From a virus (taxonomy: Duplodnaviria; Caudoviricetes), in IMG/VR virus record IMGVR_UViG_3300048672_000970, positions 1-64,000 of that record: a DNA stretch of 64,000 nucleotides, one strand, 5' to 3'. Made by a program: the position numbers and the translations under genes. Under the pieces are notes generated by a model, which ran no database searches, was not told the origin of the DNA, and saw only the letters and a list, made by a program, of their open reading frames with translations. Below, one piece after another: positions 4,988 through 51,052 of the stretch (positions within the stretch are counted from its first letter, which is position 1; each line of letters opens with the position of its first letter).

Positions 4988-5410
4988 TCAAAAATCGGTG
5001 CACCGTACAACACTGGTCAGTTCTTTGTACCGACTGAATGGGATTGTAACGCAGGTTTCAGTGTCTTGCAATAGCGTAATCAGTCGTTGCAAAGAATCAA
5101 GATGGGCTTGGGCGGTTTGAAGAAGATTTTCAAGGTCTTTTCGCTGGTCGAAAAGACGCCGCCGCTCAGCGTCGGCGCGGATTTCAACCGCTTCAAATTC
5201 TCCAAACAGCGATTCTTTAATGAGGCTGAATATTGAGATAGTTTGGCGGCATCCTTCTTCGTCCATCTGCTCGATTTGCCGCTCAATATCCGCAATCTGC
5301 TCGCAAAGTTCTTGAATGTGGAATTCAACTGCAGGAATCATCTTCAGAAATTCTTTGACGAAATAGTCTCGGTCTTCCAAAGAATCAATCTGAATAGTGA
5401 TATCAGCCAT
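4988..5410 (-). CDS. Coiled-coil hypothetical protein
   Basis: Heptad-rich ORF starting MADITIQ at 5410. Confidence 0.6.
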   Translation of the reverse strand: MADITIQIDSLEDRDYFVKEFLKMIPAVEFHIQELCEQIADIERQIEQMDEEGCRQTISIFSLIKESLFGEFEAVEIRADAERRRLFDQRKDLENLLQTAQAHLDSLQRLITLLQDTETCVTIPFSRYKELTSVVRCTDF

Positions 5411-40855: not shown

Positions 40856-42634
40856 TTATTCAAGTTGAGAAGTGTAAATGGTTTGGAATTCATCCGCCCA
40901 ATCATTATTGGTTGACCACAGCTTTTTGATATTGCTATCAATGAAATAGGTGGTTGCCCAATCGTTAACGTGGCGTACCGACCGGCCGGCGCCTTGCACC
41001 AATTTTAGCAGCGTTTCAAGCTGATAGATGTGCGGGTACTGATCAAGAATTCGCTTCATGCGCGCGTCACCAAGGCTGCCATACGGCGCTTTAACGATGA
41101 TTTGATACCGTGACTGGTCATTAGGCAAATCGATGCCCTCAAAGCCGGCTGGCGTCAGCAGGATGGCAGACCCCTTGTATGCCTTGAAAGCTTTCAGCAC
41201 CTGATTCAGTTTTTTGCCCTGTTCATGTTGAAAGATTTGCGCATTGGTCTTCAATCCATTGGCAATCAAACTGTTCAGCTTGAAAGACGGCGTAAGAATA
41301 ATTCCCCGCTCTTTCTTCGCATGGTGGTGATTGACAATTTGATTGCTCAGGGAAACCAACTTTTTCCCTGTCTCCGGATTCTGTAATGATTGATAACTCA
41401 GTGGAATCGGATTGAGGAAAATAACTTTCTTGTTCTTCTTCGGAAAGACAGCCGGTGCTTTGATGAATTTCACCTTACCGGGAATCTTCATATAAGCCTT
41501 AACTAACGTTTCGTTAATCGTCGCGCTCATGATAAGCGTATAAGTCGAATTGACCATTTCACGATACATATCACCGATGAACAGCGGTTTGATAATGAGC
41601 TGATATGGCTGATTCGGGTCTTGGGCAGTTGGCTGCTTGAACTCATACGAGTGTTCATAAGTTTTTGAAACGAACTTGTCCGTTACGCCGACCAGATTGC
41701 CGAGCTTGCGCGAAAACTTGTTCAGCGTCTTGAACAGTTCTTTGTTCAGGACGAAATCCTTCATGTTGAGAATTCGCTCATTGACATCTGCGAGAAATGG
41801 CCGATAGACATCTTGAAGCATCAGGGAGAAAAACTCAACATAGTTTTCTTGCGTGATATCACCAGACGTAAAAATACCTTTCAGGTCTTTAACTAACTTA
41901 GCATACTTCGGATTCCCGAGTGCAAGCGTTGCTTCTTCAGCGAGTTTATCAAACAGTGTTTCTGACAGTTCTAACGTGACAAAATCAACGAACAGTGAAT
42001 TAGTCAGATGCCCTTCGTCAAATACTGCGAGGGTACGAGATTGCAGTGCGATTTCATCCGGCATGAAAAGTCGGTCAACGTAGTAATACGCATAATTTGT
42101 CACCAGATGGTGTGACTTTTCTTTTTTCTGACGAAGGAAATTGTATTGACAAAAGCGGCAATGCTCATTGAGCATTTCTTCATTGTTCGACCGAGTGAAA
42201 TCGGAGAAAACGCAATCTTCCGCAGTGGTTGGTTCACCCGTACTGGATAGTGCCGAGCAATTATAGTTCGATGCACCTTTCACCACCAGAAAGTTGAGGT
42301 CGCGTTCAGATTCAGCAAAATCGGTCGCATACTGATCGAGCAGGACGTTAGTTGCTGATAGCAGAAATGATGCTTGTTCGTGCTGGTCTGGGTGCAGAAT
42401 TGAATGGAGTGCTTCAGCAGTAACGACCGCTATCGTTGACTTACCTCGGCCAGTGGGTGCGGATAGGATGATGGTTTTGTTATCTTCATCCAGAAATGAG
42501 ACAAGAAGCTGATTGATAATTTCTTCTTGTCCGTCCCACGGCTCACGGCCGACCTTCTTGAACGCGGCTAAAATTTGTTCCTTGTATTTCATGCAGTCCT
42601 TTGGTGCAAAGTTGGAGATGCTGAATGATAGCAT
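40856..42634 (-). CDS. dinG: DinG/YoaA-family SF2 helicase with Fe-S-type cysteines
   Basis: GQEE Q-motif, APTGRGKS, four Cys (NYNC, EDC, HCRFC), DEGH, MSAT, EGIDLP, QGAGRSVR. Confidence 0.85.
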   Translation of the reverse strand: MLSFSISNFAPKDCMKYKEQILAAFKKVGREPWDGQEEIINQLLVSFLDEDNKTIILSAPTGRGKSTIAVVTAEALHSILHPDQHEQASFLLSATNVLLDQYATDFAESERDLNFLVVKGASNYNCSALSSTGEPTTAEDCVFSDFTRSNNEEMLNEHCRFCQYNFLRQKKEKSHHLVTNYAYYYVDRLFMPDEIALQSRTLAVFDEGHLTNSLFVDFVTLELSETLFDKLAEEATLALGNPKYAKLVKDLKGIFTSGDITQENYVEFFSLMLQDVYRPFLADVNERILNMKDFVLNKELFKTLNKFSRKLGNLVGVTDKFVSKTYEHSYEFKQPTAQDPNQPYQLIIKPLFIGDMYREMVNSTYTLIMSATINETLVKAYMKIPGKVKFIKAPAVFPKKNKKVIFLNPIPLSYQSLQNPETGKKLVSLSNQIVNHHHAKKERGIILTPSFKLNSLIANGLKTNAQIFQHEQGKKLNQVLKAFKAYKGSAILLTPAGFEGIDLPNDQSRYQIIVKAPYGSLGDARMKRILDQYPHIYQLETLLKLVQGAGRSVRHVNDWATTYFIDSNIKKLWSTNNDWADEFQTIYTSQLE

Positions 42635-42675: not shown

Positions 42676-42942
42676 TCATCGGTCTTCTGGTTCAACCCAC
42701 ATCTGTTCGGCAGAATAGGTTGCTTGCAGAATCTTTTGCAAATCCATCGTACCAAGCGACCGTTCAAATTCAGAAGACGGATAAGCAATCACCCGTGCAA
42801 CATTCTTGAATCGTTGCAGCTCTTTGTACAGTTGAAGAATATCTGCTTTAGCGTCTTCAAACGCGTACTGAATGGCTGCAGGGCTTTGAGTTACCATTGC
42901 CCGAGGGTCGCAGTTAGTCCATTGGTCAATAGTGCGTTGCAT
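42676..42942 (-). CDS. Hypothetical phage protein (88 aa)
   Basis: Start moved to ATG 42942 (MQRTIDQW...), 1 nt after the upstream stop. Confidence 0.6.
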   Translation of the reverse strand: MQRTIDQWTNCDPRAMVTQSPAAIQYAFEDAKADILQLYKELQRFKNVARVIAYPSSEFERSLGTMDLQKILQATYSAEQMWVEPEDR

Positions 42943-42943
42943 T

Positions 42944-43429
42944 TTAACGACCCCCGATAATGATTCGTGCCCGAGATTCCAGCCCGTAAAGCTGATGATG
43001 CTCTTGCTTTTGAGCATGCTTCGCCCGCGCCTTTGCCTCATCGGCAAATTCATACCGGCGAGCCGTTTGAAAAGTTTGAATGATCTTGCCAACGTCAGAC
43101 AGCACACTTGCACGCGTTGCCAGGATTTCTCCTTCCACGTCCACGTCAATCTTGCTGAAAGAGAAAATGGACGGCTGCGTGTGCTCCAGAGTTTCAACCA
43201 GCACATGATCCATGGCTTGTCGAATATTCTTCACCAGCACTTCATCCTTTTGGCCGGTGGCAAACTGTTCGCGCATCAGCTTTGCCAGCGCAGCATACGC
43301 CTTCGATGCTGCGGGCGTCAGCACGCCGGGGATCGGGAGATTCTTGCGATTCCACGCCTGTTGCTGGCGGGTCAGGAAAGGTTGTTGTGCGGCAATCTTC
43401 TGGCTCGGTTCAACGATGTGCTTTTGCAT
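42944..43429 (-). CDS. Hypothetical helical protein (161 aa) immediately downstream of the CRISPR array
   Basis: ATG 43429 preceded by AAGGAAG RBS. Confidence 0.7.
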   Translation of the reverse strand: MQKHIVEPSQKIAAQQPFLTRQQQAWNRKNLPIPGVLTPAASKAYAALAKLMREQFATGQKDEVLVKNIRQAMDHVLVETLEHTQPSIFSFSKIDVDVEGEILATRASVLSDVGKIIQTFQTARRYEFADEAKARAKHAQKQEHHQLYGLESRARIIIGGR

Positions 43430-43525
43430 GATGCTTCCTTTCAGGTGGTGTTGCGATGGAATGAATTTTAACGGATTTGACGAAAGAGACAATCAGAAAG
43501 TTGTATCAGGATGTAACCAGATTTT

Positions 43526-44164
43526 ATGTTAATCCGCACAAGTGGCGGCGAGGGACTCACGTAGCTTGAGCATCAAAGACGCGAGCCTTTTAAGCCGCAC
43601 GTATGGCGGCGAGGTCAGCAGAGTATCACCGCATTGCTGAAATCTGCTCTTTTAAGCCGCACGTATGGCGGCGAGGAACTCATCTAACCTGACGCTCATC
43701 GCAGGGCTTCTTTTAAGCCGCACGTATGGCGGCGAGGCTGCTCGGTTTGAGTGCTGATGCAAAAGCTGTTCTTTTAAGCCGCACGTATGGCGGCGAGGGG
43801 ATTTTCTCAGTCAGCGGCAGTCACATCAGTTCTTTTAAGCCGCACGTATGGCGGCGAGGTTTGCAATCCGGCCAGCGGAGTTGAGTGAGATACTTTTAAG
43901 CCGCACGTATGGCGGCGAGGCCAGTCGTTTTCAACGGCGGAAGATTCTTGATTCTTTTAAGCCGCACGTATGGCGGCGAGGATGCGGTCAACTGAAAATT
44001 CTTCTTTCTCAGTTCTTTTAAGCCGCACGTATGGCGGCGAGGGTTGTTTGACAGAATGACTGAATTAGTCGTCAACTTTTAAGCCGCACGTATGGCGGCG
44101 AGGCGCACTCGTGATAGTTCCTGCAGCGATTTCAGCCTTTTAAGCCGCACGTATGGCGGCGAGG
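43526..44164 (-). CRISPR. CRISPR array with type I-F-like repeat: 10 identical repeats, 1 degenerate trailer repeat, 10 spacers; no cas genes in the window
   Basis: Repeat CCTCGCCGCCATACGTGCGGCTTAAAAG (28 nt, minus strand); plus-strand starts at 43587, 43649, 43710, 43771, 43832, 43893, 43954, 44015, 44076, 44137; degenerate copy 43526-43553; unique spacers of 33 nt (one of 34). Confidence 0.97.
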
Positions 44165-44330
44165 TAGAGCTTTTCAGAAAAACATTAATTAAATCAATAA
44201 CTTACATCATTAACTTAAAGTAACCCTTTCTCAAAAGTTACCGTTTCTCACTGTCAAAAAGATGATATAAATCAATGACTTACCTCACTTTCTTCAAGTG
44301 ACTGAAAAATAAAGGGGGTCATTTGGCTGG
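44165..44330 (-). promoter_or_regulatory. Type I-F-style CRISPR leader
   Basis: AT-rich; two WATCAANNNNTTR IHF boxes (44192-44204, 44270-44282); inverted AACCCTTT (44222) and AAAGGGGGT (44311) motifs. Confidence 0.85.
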
Positions 44331-44339
44331 ACTATCTCC

Positions 44340-44753
44340 TTATCGGATGACTTCCAGCGAGAACGGAAGCGAGCGGAACCGCAACACTTTGCCCGCATCG
44401 GCCTCCGTCACGCCCACCGGGAAACGCTTCGACCGGCGACCCTTGATGGTCGGGTCATGCACCCACAGGCCGCCCTTTTGGCGCAGGGTCGCTTCAAATT
44501 CATAACCCTGCTTGGCAGCATCGCGTTCATTCCGGCGACGGATTTCCTCATTTCGAGCCTGATTTGCCCGTTCTTCCGCAGCAGCCCTTGCGGTACGGTG
44601 CTCTGCAAGAGCCTTTTCAGAACGGGCGTTAGACGCCGCCCATTCAGCGTACAGAGCTTGCGCTTCAGCACTTTGCGGGTGGAGCAGCTTAACACCATTC
44701 GGCAGAGTGGTGCATCCGAACATTTCATGATCAGCTTGGCGTGCGTCAGACAT
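44340..44753 (-). CDS. Hypothetical protein between the tRNA and the CRISPR leader
   Basis: 137-aa ORF with GGAG RBS; helical middle and basic beta-rich C-terminus. Confidence 0.65.
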   Translation of the reverse strand: MSDARQADHEMFGCTTLPNGVKLLHPQSAEAQALYAEWAASNARSEKALAEHRTARAAAEERANQARNEEIRRRNERDAAKQGYEFEATLRQKGGLWVHDPTIKGRRSKRFPVGVTEADAGKVLRFRSLPFSLEVIR

Positions 44754-44770
44754 TTTTTGCTCCGAGAAAT

Positions 44771-44846
44771 TGGTGGGTTGTGCCGGCTACGATCCGGCGA
44801 CCTACTGATTAAAAGTCAGTTGCTCTACCTACTGAGCTAACAACCC
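44771..44846 (-). tRNA. trnK: tRNA-Lys (anticodon UUU), CCA encoded
   Basis: GGGTTGT-TA-GCTC-AGTAGGTA-GAGC-A-ACTGA-CTTTTAA-TCAGT-AGGTC-GCCGG-ATCGTAG-CCGGC-ACAACCC-A-CCA folds as a 76-nt cloverleaf. Confidence 0.95.
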
Positions 44847-44863
44847 GTTGTGTTCAAGACTCT

Positions 44864-44891
44864 ATTATATACGATTTCAAAGCCGCGTCAA
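44864..44891 (-). promoter_or_regulatory. sigma70-type promoter upstream of tRNA-Lys
   Basis: TTGACG-16 nt-TATAAT. Confidence 0.7.
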
Positions 44892-45514
44892 ACAATTTCT
44901 GCTTCTTTCCGGCGAGCAAGTTCTTCCGCTGCGGCGCAGATGACGTTCAGCGGAGTCAGCTTGCCGAACAGATAGTAGAACGAACGCACGAACTGAGTGC
45001 CATGCGAATTGACAACCATGTGAGTGTTTGCGTACACACTCAGACCATTGAACAGTTCACCGAGATAAATGCCTCGGAGATACTGTTGCTGCCGCTGTTC
45101 GATGATTTCACTGAGCAGCTTTTCAACGCGCACCACCCGTTCAGGCTTTGCAGCCACTTCCGGCGCAACGATTTCAGTAGCCATCACTTCAGCCCGCAGG
45201 CCGACCAGTTCGTTGATCAGGTCGATTTCACGTTCAGCTTCCGGAAACATCTTCAGAACCGCTTCTGCATGACGGTCACGCCAGTGGTTCAGTTGATTCG
45301 GGATGTCGTAATAAACATCCGTTTGTTCTTGAGTACGAACATCATACGGAACGTTCAGAAAATGAGCATGAACCGCATCACGCACAGAATCATAGGCCCG
45401 TCCCAGCATGTCAGTAACACGCTTCTTGGCGGCCTTGCTGGAAAAACCATCAGCCATCATTTGCATGGCATTAGCGATGTTCTTTTCTGCGCGGGTGATG
45501 TATTGCGAGGTCAT
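44888..45514 (-). CDS. Hypothetical phage protein
   Basis: 208-aa ORF. Confidence 0.7.
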   Translation of the reverse strand: MTSQYITRAEKNIANAMQMMADGFSSKAAKKRVTDMLGRAYDSVRDAVHAHFLNVPYDVRTQEQTDVYYDIPNQLNHWRDRHAEAVLKMFPEAEREIDLINELVGLRAEVMATEIVAPEVAAKPERVVRVEKLLSEIIEQRQQQYLRGIYLGELFNGLSVYANTHMVVNSHGTQFVRSFYYLFGKLTPLNVICAAAEELARRKEAEIV

Positions 45515-45589
45515 GTCGTTGCTCAGTTCGGTTTCGATAGGTGTTATTGTAGCGAACTGAGCAACGGAGGCAAGCGGTGTTACACTTTG

Positions 45590-46042
45590 TTACGGAATCA
45601 CTTTGAAATATTGTAGGCGCCATTTTTGTGTGTTGGAATCAAAACAGATGGGACAAAATTGCTTAAGAGTGCCACACGAGCCTTTTATATTATCATCAGG
45701 TATAAACAATGTAATACCATCCCCATTAAACATTTTGCCTCCCTGGATTTCAACCTGAGTTAAAAGCGCATCAACTGCAGCTTCCACCGAAATAAACTTC
45801 AGCGCATCTTTTTGATTGTTGGTTAGTTCAGCCGAGAAACGGGCTGGATTAGAGGCATCGTCCCCTGTTTTAATGAATCCAGAATAAGTTAGGTAAGAAA
45901 ATTCGATAAGAGCCATAAAGTTTTCCTTCGCCAGAGTGACGCATCCCGGCATTAGCTTTTGTCCATTACCCGTGCACGATAAGGATAGAGATTTTACACC
46001 CCTACCTGAATATGTAACAAACGCGTTTTCGATTTTAGTCAC
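45590..46042 (-). CDS. Hypothetical protein
   Basis: 150 aa; ATGA overlap with the upstream gene; internal xxTYSG motif occurs twice. Confidence 0.55.
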   Translation of the reverse strand: MTKIENAFVTYSGRGVKSLSLSCTGNGQKLMPGCVTLAKENFMALIEFSYLTYSGFIKTGDDASNPARFSAELTNNQKDALKFISVEAAVDALLTQVEIQGGKMFNGDGITLFIPDDNIKGSCGTLKQFCPICFDSNTQKWRLQYFKVIP

Positions 46043-46458
46043 CCAAACACTTCATCATAGTCCACCGTCAGCCCATTAGCGCATACGATGTTACGTTCAA
46101 CGATGTGCCGAAATTCTTCATGACCTGCTAGAAGTCTATCACGGCATAGCTGGACGTTATCGGGCATGATGTCAATCCCGTAAATGGTTGATAGTGCTTG
46201 TTCCAGCGTAGAGCCGTTTTCCAGCTTCCTGATGAGGATTTCTGAAAGGAACTGCCCATCCCCGCAGGCGTTGTCAATAAACGTCTTAGAAGGGTCTTTG
46301 AAGACTTCTGGGTTGATATGGTCAAGCACTTCTTGAACGAGTGGAGTGGGGGTGAAAACTTCAGCAGTAGCTTTTACCCGATTTGCATCACGTTCGATAC
46401 CTGACATATATTCCCGGTTTCGGGCATGATTGATGATATGAGTTAGTTCAGGATTCAT
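46039..46458 (-). CDS. Half N6-adenine methyltransferase (SAM-binding motifs X, I, II, III only)
   Basis: AEVFTP, FIDNACGDGQF, IYGIDI, NIVCAN, then stop with no NPPY/F; start moved to MNPEL at 46458. Confidence 0.85.
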   Translation of the reverse strand: MNPELTHIINHARNREYMSGIERDANRVKATAEVFTPTPLVQEVLDHINPEVFKDPSKTFIDNACGDGQFLSEILIRKLENGSTLEQALSTIYGIDIMPDNVQLCRDRLLAGHEEFRHIVERNIVCANGLTVDYDEVFG

Positions 46459-47458
46459 TTGACTTTCCATTCTTGAGTTCTTTCTTAATAGCTTCCACGA
46501 GTTTTTGGCAAAAGGTATTCCCAATAAATTGAGTAAATGGGAATACTTCAACCGCCGGGCCATCATATAGCCGCTCATTTAGCAAATAGATATATCCGCT
46601 TGTCATCGATGCATCTGATGGGTCAGATGCCGCTTTCATTTTCCCAAATTCCTCTTTAACAAAAAGAGGCGTGCTACCGGGAATATCATGCATCATTACG
46701 TCATATTCGGCGGATTGCAAAGAGCATTTAACGTAATAGGTTGAGCGAATATTTCTATACTTCATCCTAAGTTCGTCAAACCCCACGTTGGTAGTCATAA
46801 TAGCATCAATTTTGTAGTGCGAATTATATTTCAGCGGGGCGGAAGGGGATAAAAAACTACTTACTGTATATTCAGTTCGGCTTACCCATTGTTCAAACAG
46901 ACCCGTATGGGTGACTTCGGAAACGAAAGTTACTTCTCCCGGCGTTTCAGTGCTAGCCGTACTGCCTTTAATTACACATTCATCTTTGGTTAGATTTTGC
47001 TTCGGACACACAAAATTCAACAGGCCCATTTTGTTGGCAAAGAAAAATACGGGAACTTCTGTAACGGATGCATCAATGTAACGTGCCACACGGCCTTCAC
47101 CATAAAGTCTATAAGCCGCACTTTTCTTATTTCGTGGATCACCCTTGCCACATACGGCATTCTTAAGAGAGTCCAAAGACGAAGTGGGATTAATGACGAT
47201 TCTACCAGTTGTTGTAATTACGGTGTTATCACTACACACGAGATTAAAAGGGGAGGTGAACACAACCACCCCGTTTTTGTTTTCACTTTTTGTCATTACA
47301 TCTACTGACCCATTTTTATTAATGGCTACTGAGTCAACGTCGAGGAAAAATTTCCTATAGTCACCCCCATAACCATTGGTAGCATAAGCCACCCAATCAG
47401 CAGCATTTGCCCCAACACCCATTACGGCCAATAACCCAGCAATCAAAGTCTTCTTCAT
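46448..47458 (-). CDS. Secreted/periplasmic protein (336 aa)
   Basis: MKKTLIAGLLAVMGVGANA|ADW signal peptide; overlaps both neighbours. Confidence 0.7.
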   Translation of the reverse strand: MKKTLIAGLLAVMGVGANAADWVAYATNGYGGDYRKFFLDVDSVAINKNGSVDVMTKSENKNGVVVFTSPFNLVCSDNTVITTTGRIVINPTSSLDSLKNAVCGKGDPRNKKSAAYRLYGEGRVARYIDASVTEVPVFFFANKMGLLNFVCPKQNLTKDECVIKGSTASTETPGEVTFVSEVTHTGLFEQWVSRTEYTVSSFLSPSAPLKYNSHYKIDAIMTTNVGFDELRMKYRNIRSTYYVKCSLQSAEYDVMMHDIPGSTPLFVKEEFGKMKAASDPSDASMTSGYIYLLNERLYDGPAVEVFPFTQFIGNTFCQKLVEAIKKELKNGKSNES

Positions 47459-48138
47459 TCTTCCACCCCTTCTCGCAGTTGATAAGCTTCAAAGTCAATT
47501 TCACAACTGGCAACCGAGATAGGTGCCAGACCATTTTTCTCACGGAGCATGTTAAGAAAGCCGAAGTTATCTTTCACCTTCTTCTTAATCATATCTCCGT
47601 TGACAACTTCCACGCAGCCAAAACACATTTCATTCAGATTGAAATGGATGCCCTTGGCGGTGGTGAACAAAATCTTTCTAGCCTTATAGGCTACTCGCTC
47701 AACCAGCGCACGCATACTCGCATGTGTGATAAAATTGGTAATACCGTATTCATCATTTGCTGTAAATTCATATGAAGACTTTTCAACGTACTTCATCTGA
47801 ATAAAAACGGGGGCGCCGGGATGGCCGGAAATCTTGCCATCATGATAAGGCTTCAGTGTAGTAGTCTTCCCCTCTGCATCAATGCCATAATCCTTAGCGG
47901 TATCACACAGCTCTTTTGAGAGGGCTACTCCATGCAGGTTGAAATCCTTACCAAAATAATTAAGGAACTCTTTTCCAAACCATTCGAGGAAATCACCCTT
48001 AAAGACTTCAGGATGGTTTTTATACGCATCCTGAATCGGCTTAGAACGAGCTTGTTTCTTCACACGGTCAATGATATCTGAAAAGTCAGGCTGCTGGAGC
48101 AGTTGAGCAAAATCAGCATACTTTTCAAATCTGGTCAT
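47455..48138 (-). CDS. Mrr-like PD-(D/E)xK restriction endonuclease-fold protein
   Basis: KGDFLE helix, DYGID and FIQMKY (D...QxK variant). Confidence 0.72.
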   Translation of the reverse strand: MTRFEKYADFAQLLQQPDFSDIIDRVKKQARSKPIQDAYKNHPEVFKGDFLEWFGKEFLNYFGKDFNLHGVALSKELCDTAKDYGIDAEGKTTTLKPYHDGKISGHPGAPVFIQMKYVEKSSYEFTANDEYGITNFITHASMRALVERVAYKARKILFTTAKGIHFNLNEMCFGCVEVVNGDMIKKKVKDNFGFLNMLREKNGLAPISVASCEIDFEAYQLREGVEE

Positions 48139-48152
48139 GATACCCTCTGTTG

Positions 48153-49478
48153 TTACGGTGCCTTACGTTGCTTTTTCGCCTTACCGGGTGCGTTTGCTTC
48201 AATGTATGCAATTTCTTCCGGCGTCAGCTTGAGAGCATTGTAAATCAGGTTTGGCGAAAAGTCAACGGCTAAGTCAATCTTTGGGATGTGGGCCAGCAGA
48301 GTTCGGTTGGTGAATCCGGCCGTTTTCGTTTGGTCAAGAAGCCATGCCATGATGTCAGATGTGAGGTATTCCATAATATGCGTACCTTCTAATGGCGTAT
48401 CCACCAAAATGGCGGCGGCGTGCTCGGTATATCCCCACTCGCCATCCATATCAAAAACCATTTTGTCGGACACCGTTCCTCTGGCGGCGTAAAGGGGGAA
48501 CACAATTTTCCGTTTGAACTGATTAGGATGGGGCTTAGAGCCATATCGAATGCTCGCGCCGTGCACATTCGGATAATGAAATACATTATCATCAACTTTC
48601 GACATATGCGGCCTGCGGGCATCATTATTCGAGTCAAACAACACTTCCATGTTTTCACGAGTTCTATCATTGAATACTTTATTCATAATAGAAAGACTGA
48701 TAGTGTCAACCGTTTCAGGCATAACTGTAATATTATTTAAATTGATAAAAACCGTATCTTTACCATTCACCGCAGTGGTTAAATGTTCCCGCGAAGGAAG
48801 TTCTTTTTTAACAATGAACCAAGAAACAGTCGTACCAACGGTAGGGAAATATTCACGGGCATTTAAGCAAATGTACTCGGCGCTGTATTTGTTTATCACC
48901 TCTTTAAACACTTTTGTTTTGGAATCGGCCCAAGCATTTGGCGTAATCATTGCCAGATGGCCGGACGGCTTGACAAGTTTCATACCTGCCAGGACAAATT
49001 CCGTCCACGCCTTCTTACTGCTGGCTGCGTCTTTATCTTGAAACGGCGGGTTGCCGCACACCACATCAAATCTCATATATCTCCAATCAATGTTGCCAGT
49101 GGAAATGCAAGCATACTTGATGCCATGCATTTCACACAGTTGACGGATTTTATCATGATAGTCGTTGGTGGCGAGCGTAACGGATGCGTTATTTTGTAGT
49201 TTCAGCCACAGCGCCCATTCAAACGTCTCAAAGACCAACACGGATTGATTTCCACGGGGCAGATACGTCTGAATGTTTTCAATCAACTGATACGCAGTAA
49301 ACGGTTGGGTGAAGGCATCTTCACGGTCGGATGGTGCCGCATAAATGTCAGAAATTAAAAAATCGGCAATGGCACTCAGAATTTCAGAATTGGCAGTGTG
49401 TTCACAGTCAGTGAAATTTTCCGTGTTCAGCATGTCGTTCCAATCAAAGTTATTTGGTATGGGTGAATTATGGTACAC
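48153..49478 (-). CDS. Eco57I-like (gamma-class) N6-adenine methyltransferase with TRD; motif I degenerate
   Basis: FDVVCGNPPF motif IV, LVKPSGHLAMITP, YFPTVGT; VLVFETFE where FxGxG is expected. Confidence 0.8.
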   Translation of the reverse strand: MYHNSPIPNNFDWNDMLNTENFTDCEHTANSEILSAIADFLISDIYAAPSDREDAFTQPFTAYQLIENIQTYLPRGNQSVLVFETFEWALWLKLQNNASVTLATNDYHDKIRQLCEMHGIKYACISTGNIDWRYMRFDVVCGNPPFQDKDAASSKKAWTEFVLAGMKLVKPSGHLAMITPNAWADSKTKVFKEVINKYSAEYICLNAREYFPTVGTTVSWFIVKKELPSREHLTTAVNGKDTVFINLNNITVMPETVDTISLSIMNKVFNDRTRENMEVLFDSNNDARRPHMSKVDDNVFHYPNVHGASIRYGSKPHPNQFKRKIVFPLYAARGTVSDKMVFDMDGEWGYTEHAAAILVDTPLEGTHIMEYLTSDIMAWLLDQTKTAGFTNRTLLAHIPKIDLAVDFSPNLIYNALKLTPEEIAYIEANAPGKAKKQRKAP

Positions 49479-49501
49479 CCATTTAACGCCGTCAAGCTCT
49501 G

Positions 49502-50941
49502 TTACACAATCTTTGCGCGCAACATTTGAAGATATCGGGCATGTGACTTCTTAACGGCGGTCAGTTCCTTTTCTTCACGTTCTTGTTCTTCCACTTCAAT
49601 TTGAAGACCAGGGTCAATGGCCTTACGAACCGTCATCAAGTCTTGATATCCAGTAGCGTCAACAAGAGCTTGCAGCACTTGTTTTGCATCCGGGCCGGTC
49701 AGTTCATGGTGGTCAATGACCGGGATGATCACCAAACATTCTCGCTTCTGCCTAATGTCAAAATTGGCGGCGCGACTGAACTTGCCAGGGTCGGGGAGAT
49801 AGTCGGGGCGAGTCAAATCACCAATGTAAGGGCGGGCGCATCGACCAACTGATTGAATCAGCTTTTCACGAGTCTTTTCACTCATGAACAGAACTGCAGA
49901 CAAAGTGGAAATGTCAATCCCTTCTGCCAAAGTGTCATAATGCGCAACAATACAGTTTCGCTGATTTTCCTGAATGTCCTTCAGCAGAGCTTCCCGCGAC
50001 TGGAAAAAGTTACCGTCTTTCATCTGATTCTTGGAAGATACGGTATTAATGTTAAAACATCCGGCCACTTCCGGCAGTTCAGCAACAATACGGTCATAGA
50101 TTTTCCGCACGTTAGTTTGAATGGTGGTAATGTCAACTTGCACGTCACGAGTACAAACCAGCATCTGTGTATGCGGCATACCATTGAGCCGATTTCGCTT
50201 ATACGATTCAACAAACCCGGCGACCAGAATATCAACAATAGTTGCCGAAAGTTCGACATTCTTTCGATTGGCATGCAGTTCAATAATGGCCGGAGGGACA
50301 ATGTAGCCATCCTTGTAAAGTTCATACGGAAGCACTTCAGCAAGCACGCGTCCATACATCGATTCATTCATCGCCGAATGCATGTCAACTTTTTCACCAT
50401 TCTCATATACCACCGGGGTTGCGGTATAAAGCAAACACTTCGTTTTGAAAGACAAATTCATGGTGTAGTCCCTGAATTGCTTTTGCGCCAGATAATGTCC
50501 CTCATCAGCAATGACCAAATCAAATTCAAAATCATTGATGTGGGTGAAACTGTCATACGACGCATACGTGATATGCACATTACCCACATCCATAGCGGAA
50601 TTGATACATTCCGTCAAAATGGAAGCATTGGTAGTATTGATTTCCATCCGCATGTAACCTTCAGGGTGAGCGCCAGAATTGAAAGAATTCTTCACGACTT
50701 CAATTCCGCAAATCCATTCAGCACCGTTACGCACTTGTTGCTGACTGAGCGCAATGCGCGGCGTGACAACACAGAAATTACGCATACCAAGTTCAACTGC
50801 ATGCTCGATTGCCTTGTTGAACAGGACAGTCTTCCCCGCGCCAGTAGGCGCATAAATTTGCCCAAGCATTTCATCATTTTCGATAAACGCCTTGGTGGCG
50901 TTGTGAATCTTTTCTTGGTACGGGCGCAGGGTCTTGGACAT
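49502..50941 (-). CDS. SF2 helicase/translocase (type III Res / ISP-like)
   Basis: LRPYQ, APTGAGKT, DEGH, TATP, AEGIDI, QSVGR. Confidence 0.88.
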   Translation of the reverse strand: MSKTLRPYQEKIHNATKAFIENDEMLGQIYAPTGAGKTVLFNKAIEHAVELGMRNFCVVTPRIALSQQQVRNGAEWICGIEVVKNSFNSGAHPEGYMRMEINTTNASILTECINSAMDVGNVHITYASYDSFTHINDFEFDLVIADEGHYLAQKQFRDYTMNLSFKTKCLLYTATPVVYENGEKVDMHSAMNESMYGRVLAEVLPYELYKDGYIVPPAIIELHANRKNVELSATIVDILVAGFVESYKRNRLNGMPHTQMLVCTRDVQVDITTIQTNVRKIYDRIVAELPEVAGCFNINTVSSKNQMKDGNFFQSREALLKDIQENQRNCIVAHYDTLAEGIDISTLSAVLFMSEKTREKLIQSVGRCARPYIGDLTRPDYLPDPGKFSRAANFDIRQKRECLVIIPVIDHHELTGPDAKQVLQALVDATGYQDLMTVRKAIDPGLQIEVEEQEREEKELTAVKKSHARYLQMLRAKIV

Positions 50942-50978
50942 TTGCTTAACTCACGTAGAAAGTTGTTCGATGAAATGG

Positions 50979-51007
50979 ATTATGCACAAAAGAAAAACCG
51001 GCGTCAA
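50979..51007 (-). promoter_or_regulatory. sigma70-type promoter of the helicase/MTase operon
   Basis: TTGACG-17 nt-CATAAT; the -35 box lies inside a hairpin at 50995-51017. Confidence 0.6.
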
Positions 51008-51052
51008 GCGCCGGTTTAGGTTGTTACACTTTGTTACCGCATTCACATACTT

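Follow-up and report, generated by a model that had tools for sequence, protein, structure and literature searches.

A leader-equipped CRISPR array without recognisable cas genes, and with strain-specific spacers, in an uncultivated jumbo phage

We describe a CRISPR array carried by an uncultivated jumbo phage that has a conserved leader, lies in phage DNA in which we found no cas gene, and differs completely in spacer content between sibling strains. Throughout, the window is the whole 64,000-nucleotide stretch that was analysed, and the phage it represents is called strain A. One spacer of a sibling strain derives from this same phage lineage, which fits a phage-versus-phage use of the array. 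Our preferred reading, to which we give moderate confidence, is that this Cas-less array is serviced by Cas proteins of the host and is used against competing phages, siblings included.

The window covers the opening 64 kb of an IMG/VR record of 200,363 bp, for which CheckV estimated a completeness of 56%. The carrier encodes T4-type topoisomerase II subunits, a giant baseplate wedge protein and an endolysin, and genes for ribonucleotide reductase, tail sheath and gp15 lie directly past the right end of the record. The wedge protein, topoisomerase II, endolysin, sheath and gp15 confirm the phage origin given in an initial annotation made from the sequence of the window, and the carrier is an uncultivated, T4-related jumbo myophage of fresh water. 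Its nearest cultured relative is the Ralstonia jumbo phage RsoM2USA (44% identity in the wedge protein), followed by the XacN1-type phages. Searches of IMG/VR with DinG peptides returned no close relatives, and the topoisomerases there are only 29-44% identical. DNA near-identical to the window was found in freshwater and aquatic metagenomes.

The array occupies window positions 43526-44164 and consists of ten exact 28-nt repeats, one degenerate repeat and ten unique spacers. The repeat reads CTTTTAAGCCGCACGTATGGCGGCGAGG on the plus strand and CCTCGCCGCCATACGTGCGGCTTAAAAG in the crRNA sense (minus strand). Its parts are the following.

43526-43553, minus strand: degenerate terminal repeat at the trailer end, identical to the repeat at 22/28 positions
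43554-43586: tenth spacer, between the repeat block and the terminal repeat
43587-44164, minus strand: repeat block, ten identical 28-nt repeats with nine of the ten spacers between them
43587, 43649, 43710, 43771, 43832, 43893, 43954, 44015, 44076 and 44137: starts of the ten exact repeats

Nine of the spacers are 33 nt long and one is 34 nt, all are mutually different, and the array has a period of 61 (62 in one unit). The locus thus shows the general make-up of a CRISPR array: identical direct repeats within the range of 23-50 nt, unique spacers of near-constant length, and a degenerate repeat at the end opposite an AT-rich leader. The loop variant ACTTG of the degenerate repeat is also present near the trailer end of the sibling array described below. 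The initial annotation had reported ten identical repeats, a degenerate trailer repeat, ten unique spacers and a leader, and we located each of them, the leader being the AT-rich non-coding DNA on the side away from the degenerate repeat. Its by-eye impression that no spacer matches the window also held, and extends to the whole 200,363-bp record, where none of the ten spacers has a match elsewhere at up to 8 mismatches; the 28-nt repeat has no copy outside the array anywhere in that record. The peptides that it read from the spacers are correct translations, but strings of 11 codons carry no evidential weight.

The leader and the sites within it are listed here.

44165-44339, minus strand: leader, AT-rich and non-coding, 175 bp
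44192-44204, plus strand: IHF-consensus site 1, WATCAANNNNTTR, 28 bp from the first repeat
44206-44234, minus strand: sigma-70-like promoter match reading into the array, TTGAGA-17-AATGAT, 9/12 positions; weak, a consensus match only
44270-44282, plus strand: IHF-consensus site 2, in the leader

GC content falls to 0.41 in the leader, which is 97% conserved in the sibling strain B (5 differences in 176 nt) and is thereby better conserved than the flanking genes (94-96% between the same two strains). Both IHF-consensus sites are perfect matches and lie inside a 47-nt direct repeat, D2; the whole 64 kb holds 12 such sites, two of them in these 175 bp. Three independent pointers place the predicted crRNA sense on the minus strand. 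First, the AT-rich leader sits opposite the degenerate repeat. Second, a predicted repeat hairpin (G5-C21, -9.3 kcal/mol) is trailed on its 3' side by a 7-8-nt tail, UUAAAAG (7 nt) or 8 nt with the outer pair open, in this sense alone, and class 1 crRNA handles require such a tail. Third, all 12 of the Cas6f-linked repeats introduced below align with the phage repeat at offset 0 that way round.

Sibling strains with the same array were found in other freshwater metagenomes. We scanned JGI metagenomes for the repeat with degeneracy allowed and obtained one array-bearing contig (L028), and the same DNA was present in ENA and Logan assemblies (L040-L042). These sequences are all 100% identical to one another and probably come from one sample; we refer to the phage that they represent as strain B. 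The genes and segments around the array are these.

40856-42634, minus strand: DinG/XPD-type helicase, about 0.9 kb from the array
42944-43429, minus strand: ORF161, directly downstream of the trailer
44340-44753, minus strand: ORF137, directly upstream of the leader, in DNA of 56-61% GC
44771-44846, minus strand: tRNA-Lys (UUU), between ORF137 and the phrog_8776 gene, kept in the sibling
44888-45514, minus strand: ORF208, phrog_8776 family, a resident phage gene flanking the array region
45588-51052, minus strand: accessory segment of 5.5 kb, in strain A and absent from strain B

Strain B shares the phrog_8776 gene, the tRNA-Lys, ORF137 and the leader with the window at 94-97% identity, and it has the same repeat. 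Its array holds at least 6 spacers. The four leader-proximal ones are entirely unlike those of strain A, none of whose spacers was seen in strain B. When contigs of four runs were compared, two runs (X2 and X3) showed further terminal spacers at the same locus, mutually different. Thus, as expected of an interviral array, siblings (B, X2 and X3) carry the array at the same locus with other spacers, and the spacer turnover between sibling strains is complete. Because the spacers are wholly replaced while the strains share leader, repeat and locus, the comparison shows that an adaptation machinery has been writing into the phage-borne array.

A further run, X1, holds strain A together with a second contig that has a similar leader and another upstream flank. 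On this contig (1456 nt, depth 19), a leader-like stretch of 128 nt corresponds to window 44156-44283 with 14 differences and ends in the first repeat. Because the sequence upstream of it is unrelated, the leader-array module may exist in a second genomic context, in another phage or in a host.

The spacers of strain B also point to a target. Its spacer 2 finds a near-perfect match in the window.

5210-5242, plus strand: protospacer, 32/33 match to strain B spacer 2, with the 5' flank CCAAACAG

This protospacer falls within a conserved gene for a 140-aa protein (4988-5410, minus strand), and the sole mismatch, at crRNA position 1, leaves the encoded amino acid unchanged. The same spacer matches a 947-bp contig (L043/L044) at 33/33. 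This contig comes from the same samples as the strain B array, shares 92% identity with the window and likewise carries CCAAACAG as the 5' flank. Because of these two matches (32/33 in the window and 33/33 in L043/L044), spacer 2 was taken from this phage lineage. A sibling spacer matching the genome of a related virus (32/33 in the window, 33/33 in L043) is the second trait of an interviral array found here. The contig L043 may represent a co-occurring rival strain, which is the pattern of the archaeal viruses SPV1 and SPV2, or it may be part of strain B's own genome. The low-coverage sample yielded only a single assembled allele at each locus, which leans towards a self-match in strain B. 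In public data the 140-aa gene exists as three alleles at about 89% identity. It has no Pfam match, and one allele was automatically named 'regulator of replication initiation timing' by JGI.

The PAM of type I-F is CC, and the initial annotation expected to find it beside the targets. The sole solid protospacer is flanked instead by AG, the dinucleotide that also ends the repeat (n=1). The database comparison proposed at the same time named no target for the ten spacers of the window, in cultured phages, plasmids, IMG/VR or two complete distant relatives. One partial likeness crosses the border between a spacer and a repeat: spacer 2 of the window together with the adjacent 24 nt of repeat (44043-44103) matches Pseudomonas phage Milchi (L018 3001-3051) at 42/51 positions (E 4e-4). 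The match covers the ribosome-binding site and the first 16 codons of gene 61.1, a gene of the Pseudomonas T4-like phages Milchi and Astolliot. Its repeat-like part encodes AARMAA, in Milchi only among seven family members, and the differences between the window and gene 61.1 lie mostly at first codon positions. Gene 61.1 is absent from this phage and from the two complete distant relatives, and the likeness may be due to chance. A single repeat-like site on the plasmid pPL-38ph, inside a baseplate gene, was taken as chance and set aside.

To place the repeat, we used as a type I-F reference 15 arrays that lie beside Cas6f genes, drawn from 401 sampled Pseudomonadota genomes; 12 of them have clean 28-nt repeats. 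The predominant period was 60 in 14/15 of these arrays, and the fifteenth, a short one of four copies, gave 60 and 61. Nearly all of the Cas6f-linked repeats end in AGAAA, and the twelve 28-nt repeats share 18-26/28 positions among themselves (median 23). The phage repeat aligns with these twelve in register, at 15-19/28 positions, and so falls outside the sampled I-F diversity (15-19/28 against 18-26/28). Type I-F spacing combines a 28-nt repeat with 32-nt spacers and a period of 60; here the repeat is 28 nt and the period 61. The handle of the phage repeat matches CTTAGAAA at 6/8 positions, with a predicted hairpin tail of 7 or 8 nt. The initial annotation had aligned the repeat position by position with an I-F consensus. 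That alignment is indeed in register, at 18/28, but the repeat is an outlier among actual I-F repeats, and the period is 61. Taken as sequence, the repeat is I-F-like, a related outlier and not a demonstrated member of type I-F.

Searches for an owner of the repeat among hosts gave nothing. We found no host array with this repeat in an exact scan of 185,579 GTDB species genomes, which returned one chance match, and in IMG/VR and JGI metagenomes the repeat turned up nowhere apart from the sibling phage. Genomes of the order that gave the best I-F match hold no repeat match within 3 mismatches, the Rfam CRISPR-DR families do not match the repeat even at E 10, and a literature search for the sequence returned only unrelated papers. 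The partner of the repeat is probably an undescribed Cas6f-like enzyme, encoded either by the host or by the missing part of the phage genome.

Our preferred reading thus takes the following form. The array would be transcribed from its leader, along the minus strand, in the infected cell. A Cas6f-like enzyme supplied by the host would cut the hairpin repeats and release crRNAs with an 8-nt 5' handle, CUUAAAAG. These crRNAs would load into a class 1 effector of the host and be directed at co-infecting rival phages, sibling strains among them, while host Cas1-Cas2, aided by IHF bound to the leader, would add new spacers to the phage copy. Four elements of this model we infer: that the Cas proteins are host-derived, that they are I-F-like, that they cleave their targets and that the benefit lies in excluding competitors. 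The initial annotation had proposed an active inter-phage weapon, apparently built to hijack host I-F machinery. This proposal is partly supported, by the phage origin, the leader, the lack of cas genes in the available DNA, the spacer turnover and the lineage-derived spacer, the last of which fits phage-versus-phage use; the part that names host I-F machinery drew no support from a repeat at 15-19/28, a period of 61 and an AG flank. A hijack of host I-F machinery is plausible. Against the host-serviced reading as a whole we count the completeness of about 56%, the lack of a host array with this repeat, the off-range I-F repeat, the AG flank and the possible self-match.

The first of these points leads to an alternative in which the array belongs to a phage-encoded system. 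In the present phage, model searches of all six frames of the 200 kb found no Cas6f, Cas7f or Cas1 at E values up to 1, and PADLOC found no Cas effector or adaptation family at E up to 1e-5 among 214 ORFs (210 of 90-1200 aa and four giant ORFs), only generic helicase-type matches. Likewise, the called genes in the roughly 10 kb past the right end of the record include no Cas Pfam family. The initial annotation had seen no cas gene in 64 kb, and this finding extends to the whole 200 kb by both types of search. It had also suggested searching the rest of the genome for cas6f/csy; no member of the type I-F gene set (cas6f, csy1-3, cas1/cas2-3) was found in the 200-kb record. At a completeness of about 56%, the record lacks some 150 kb (44% of the genome), which could harbour cas genes. 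The phage may encode its own, possibly compact or divergent, Cas proteins there. The low completeness leaves room for this, a repeat that has no known host array and is an I-F outlier is what one would expect of a private system, and huge phages with partial systems are known (PMC7162821). However, cas genes normally adjoin their array, and what adjoins it here is a tRNA, a phrog_8776 gene, a replication-type helicase and genes that have no relatives; moreover, nothing Cas-like appeared in 200 kb plus about 10 kb. We regard phage-encoded Cas proteins as unlikely.

The possible self-match opens a second alternative, because a cleaving system should not tolerate a self-match, which counts against a cleaving weapon. 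The crRNAs might instead leave DNA uncut, either guiding an effector that has no nuclease or silencing, as antisense RNAs, genes of the carrier itself or of its close relatives. Several observations fit this. Spacer 2 of the sibling matches a contig of its own sample at 33/33, next to a repeat-like AG flank. At both candidate protospacers the flanks resemble the 3' handle of the repeat (5/8 and 6/8) and the crRNA is complementary to the mRNA, in each case with n=2, of which one is a weak match. Repression or RNA-interference-like roles have also been raised for effector-less phage arrays (Al-Shayeb et al., PMC7162821). The small number and the weak second match count against this alternative, as does the fact that none of the ten strain A spacers matches its own 200 kb, where the strain A array has no self-match. 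In addition, the 33/33 contig may be unlinked to the array, and a rapid and complete turnover of spacers fits immunity better than fixed regulation. We consider action without cleavage improbable. The more specific proposal is that the array is not, or not only, a DNA-cutting weapon and that its crRNAs regulate own or rival genes, either by binding their transcripts or by way of an effector that needs no PAM and does not cleave. It is drawn from the possible self-match, the handle-like flanks (5/8 and 6/8), the antisense crRNAs and a gene 61.1 likeness that runs 24 nt into the repeat, and we give it an equally low probability.

We also analysed the DNA around the array. The array and its immediate neighbours (window 42850-45550) have a GC content of 51%, against 44% for the genome, and ORF137 reaches 61%. 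This raised GC suggests that the array module may have come from elsewhere. ORF137 has no relatives outside this phage lineage, and none was found for ORF161. Array-adjacent genes without relatives gave no family or atlas match, and their AlphaFold models (pLDDT 51-52) are of low confidence and offer no usable fold. ORF137 and ORF208 differ from their strain B copies mainly at third codon positions and are for this reason taken as real genes; in ORF137, where 14/18 nucleotide differences are at third positions, the pattern indicates purifying selection. ORF208 was considered as a hidden Cas6 and ruled out, since phrog_8776 is widespread in array-less phage contexts: the family comprises 287 homologue clusters, with homologues in T4-like neighbourhoods without arrays, and ORF208 is not linked to the array. 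Further out, the accessory segment is bounded in strain A by a 16-nt direct repeat, GTAACAAAGTGTAACA. Besides an Eco57I-type N6 methyltransferase, it contains a second ORF that resembles a methyltransferase, a helicase of the ResIII/SF2 type, a gene for a secreted protein of 336 aa and unknown ORFs. The initial annotation had placed a second defence-like operon beside the array; a methyltransferase/helicase segment is indeed there, but it is simply missing from the sibling strain. It looks like an accessory modification and helicase cassette that recombination at a repeated intergenic motif has either inserted or removed.

The array could, in principle, be inert, a fragment of a host CRISPR locus that the phage acquired by recombination and that is now out of use. 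The lack of cas genes and of any host match would agree with this, as would the regional GC of 51% against 44%, which suggests a foreign origin. Against it stand ten perfectly identical repeats, a conserved leader with IHF sites, and spacer sets that are wholly different between strains whose flanks are 94% identical. An array out of use is quite improbable on this evidence.

A further alternative is an RNA decoy, in which repeat RNAs would soak up host Cas6 and Cas7 and weaken the CRISPR immunity of the host as an RNA anti-CRISPR. Solitary repeat units in phages reportedly can act as RNA anti-CRISPRs, and the present repeat is I-F-like but off-consensus and sits on a lytic-type phage. For a decoy, a leader with IHF sites would be superfluous, as would ten unique spacers and their turnover, and we think this reading very improbable.

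Finally, the DinG/XPD-type helicase at 40856-42634 matches the PADLOC model typeIV_DinG PDLC01439 over its full length (1e-47). The same model is also matched by the array-less phages RsoM2USA (9e-60), Maynard (3e-51) and Ab1-TPeters (3.5e-38), and these controls ruled out the reading of the helicase as a type IV-A DinG (Csf4). Its homologues occur in 500 phage records and only 3 plasmid records, it scores only 25 bits against TIGR03117 csf4, whose cut-off is 400, and PADLOC scans found no Csf1, Csf2, Csf3 or Csf5. The helicase is a resident, replication-type phage helicase and not a type IV Csf4. Thus, a type IV-A-like system that uses this helicase is largely refuted and hardly credible: the match to the DinG model and the distance of about 0.9 kb from the array are offset by array-less phages that match the same model, by phage-rich and plasmid-poor homologues, by the csf4 score and by the lack of Csf proteins. 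As a separate observation, the gene upstream of the homologous helicase in Acinetobacter phage Ab1-TPeters (L038, 1-183) is annotated as a 'CRISPR/Cas system associated protein', which is probably a Cas4-like nuclease label from PHROGs.

The locus adds a bacterial jumbo-phage case to the few viruses in which a CRISPR array has a leader but is accompanied by no Cas proteins. Evidence at the level of the population is unusually clear, with one locus and one repeat, sibling spacers that differ, and one spacer that comes from the lineage itself. It supports the idea that phages borrow host CRISPR machinery against their own relatives, and it makes it possible to ask, in a defined case, how an array carried by a virus obtains its spacers. 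In addition, the off-consensus repeat suggests a partner enzyme, Cas6f-like and not yet described, in a freshwater host.

Compared with the type I-F arrays (Cas6f/Csy systems) of Pseudomonadota, a group to which the complete I-F system of Vibrio phage ICP1 is counted, the phage array shares a 28-nt repeat in register, a GC hairpin in mid-repeat, the CTTA motif that starts the 3' handle and IHF-type sites in the leader. It differs in a repeat identity (15-19/28) below the within-family range, in a period of 61 instead of 60, in a handle that ends in AAAAG instead of AGAAA, in a predicted hairpin shifted by one pair, in the lack of csy or cas6f genes, and in a sole protospacer flank of AG instead of CC.

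Huge phages carry compact arrays without acquisition genes and often without interference genes, with repeats like those of their hosts and spacers against other phages (Al-Shayeb et al. 2020, PMC7162821). The likeness to our phage lies in a genome above 200 kb, a compact array, the lack of adaptation or recognisable interference genes, and the proposed use of host Cas proteins against competing phages. In contrast to those arrays, no cas gene at all was seen beside this one, its repeat has no known host counterpart, and spacer replacement from strain to strain at one locus is documented here. The archaeal portogloboviruses SPV1 and SPV2 carry leader-bearing, Cas-less mini-arrays, and these sibling viruses hold spacers against each other (Medvedeva et al. 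2019, PMC6858448). Both cases have no cas genes, a leader, the same array position in siblings with different spacers, spacers from a sibling lineage and, as a proposed role, superinfection exclusion. SPV1 and SPV2 infect an archaeon, hold 1-2 spacers, share their repeats exactly with host arrays and have a mutated allele in the carrier itself; our case concerns a jumbo phage of bacteria in which the array holds 10 spacers (the sibling has at least 6) and the carrier's own allele may be unaltered. Thus, the locus behaves like both the Cas-less arrays of huge phages and the mini-arrays of archaeal viruses, and is of a kind already known. Its particulars are a bacterial jumbo phage as carrier, a full-size array, IHF-type leader sites, strain-level spacer replacement, an off-consensus repeat and a possible self-match.
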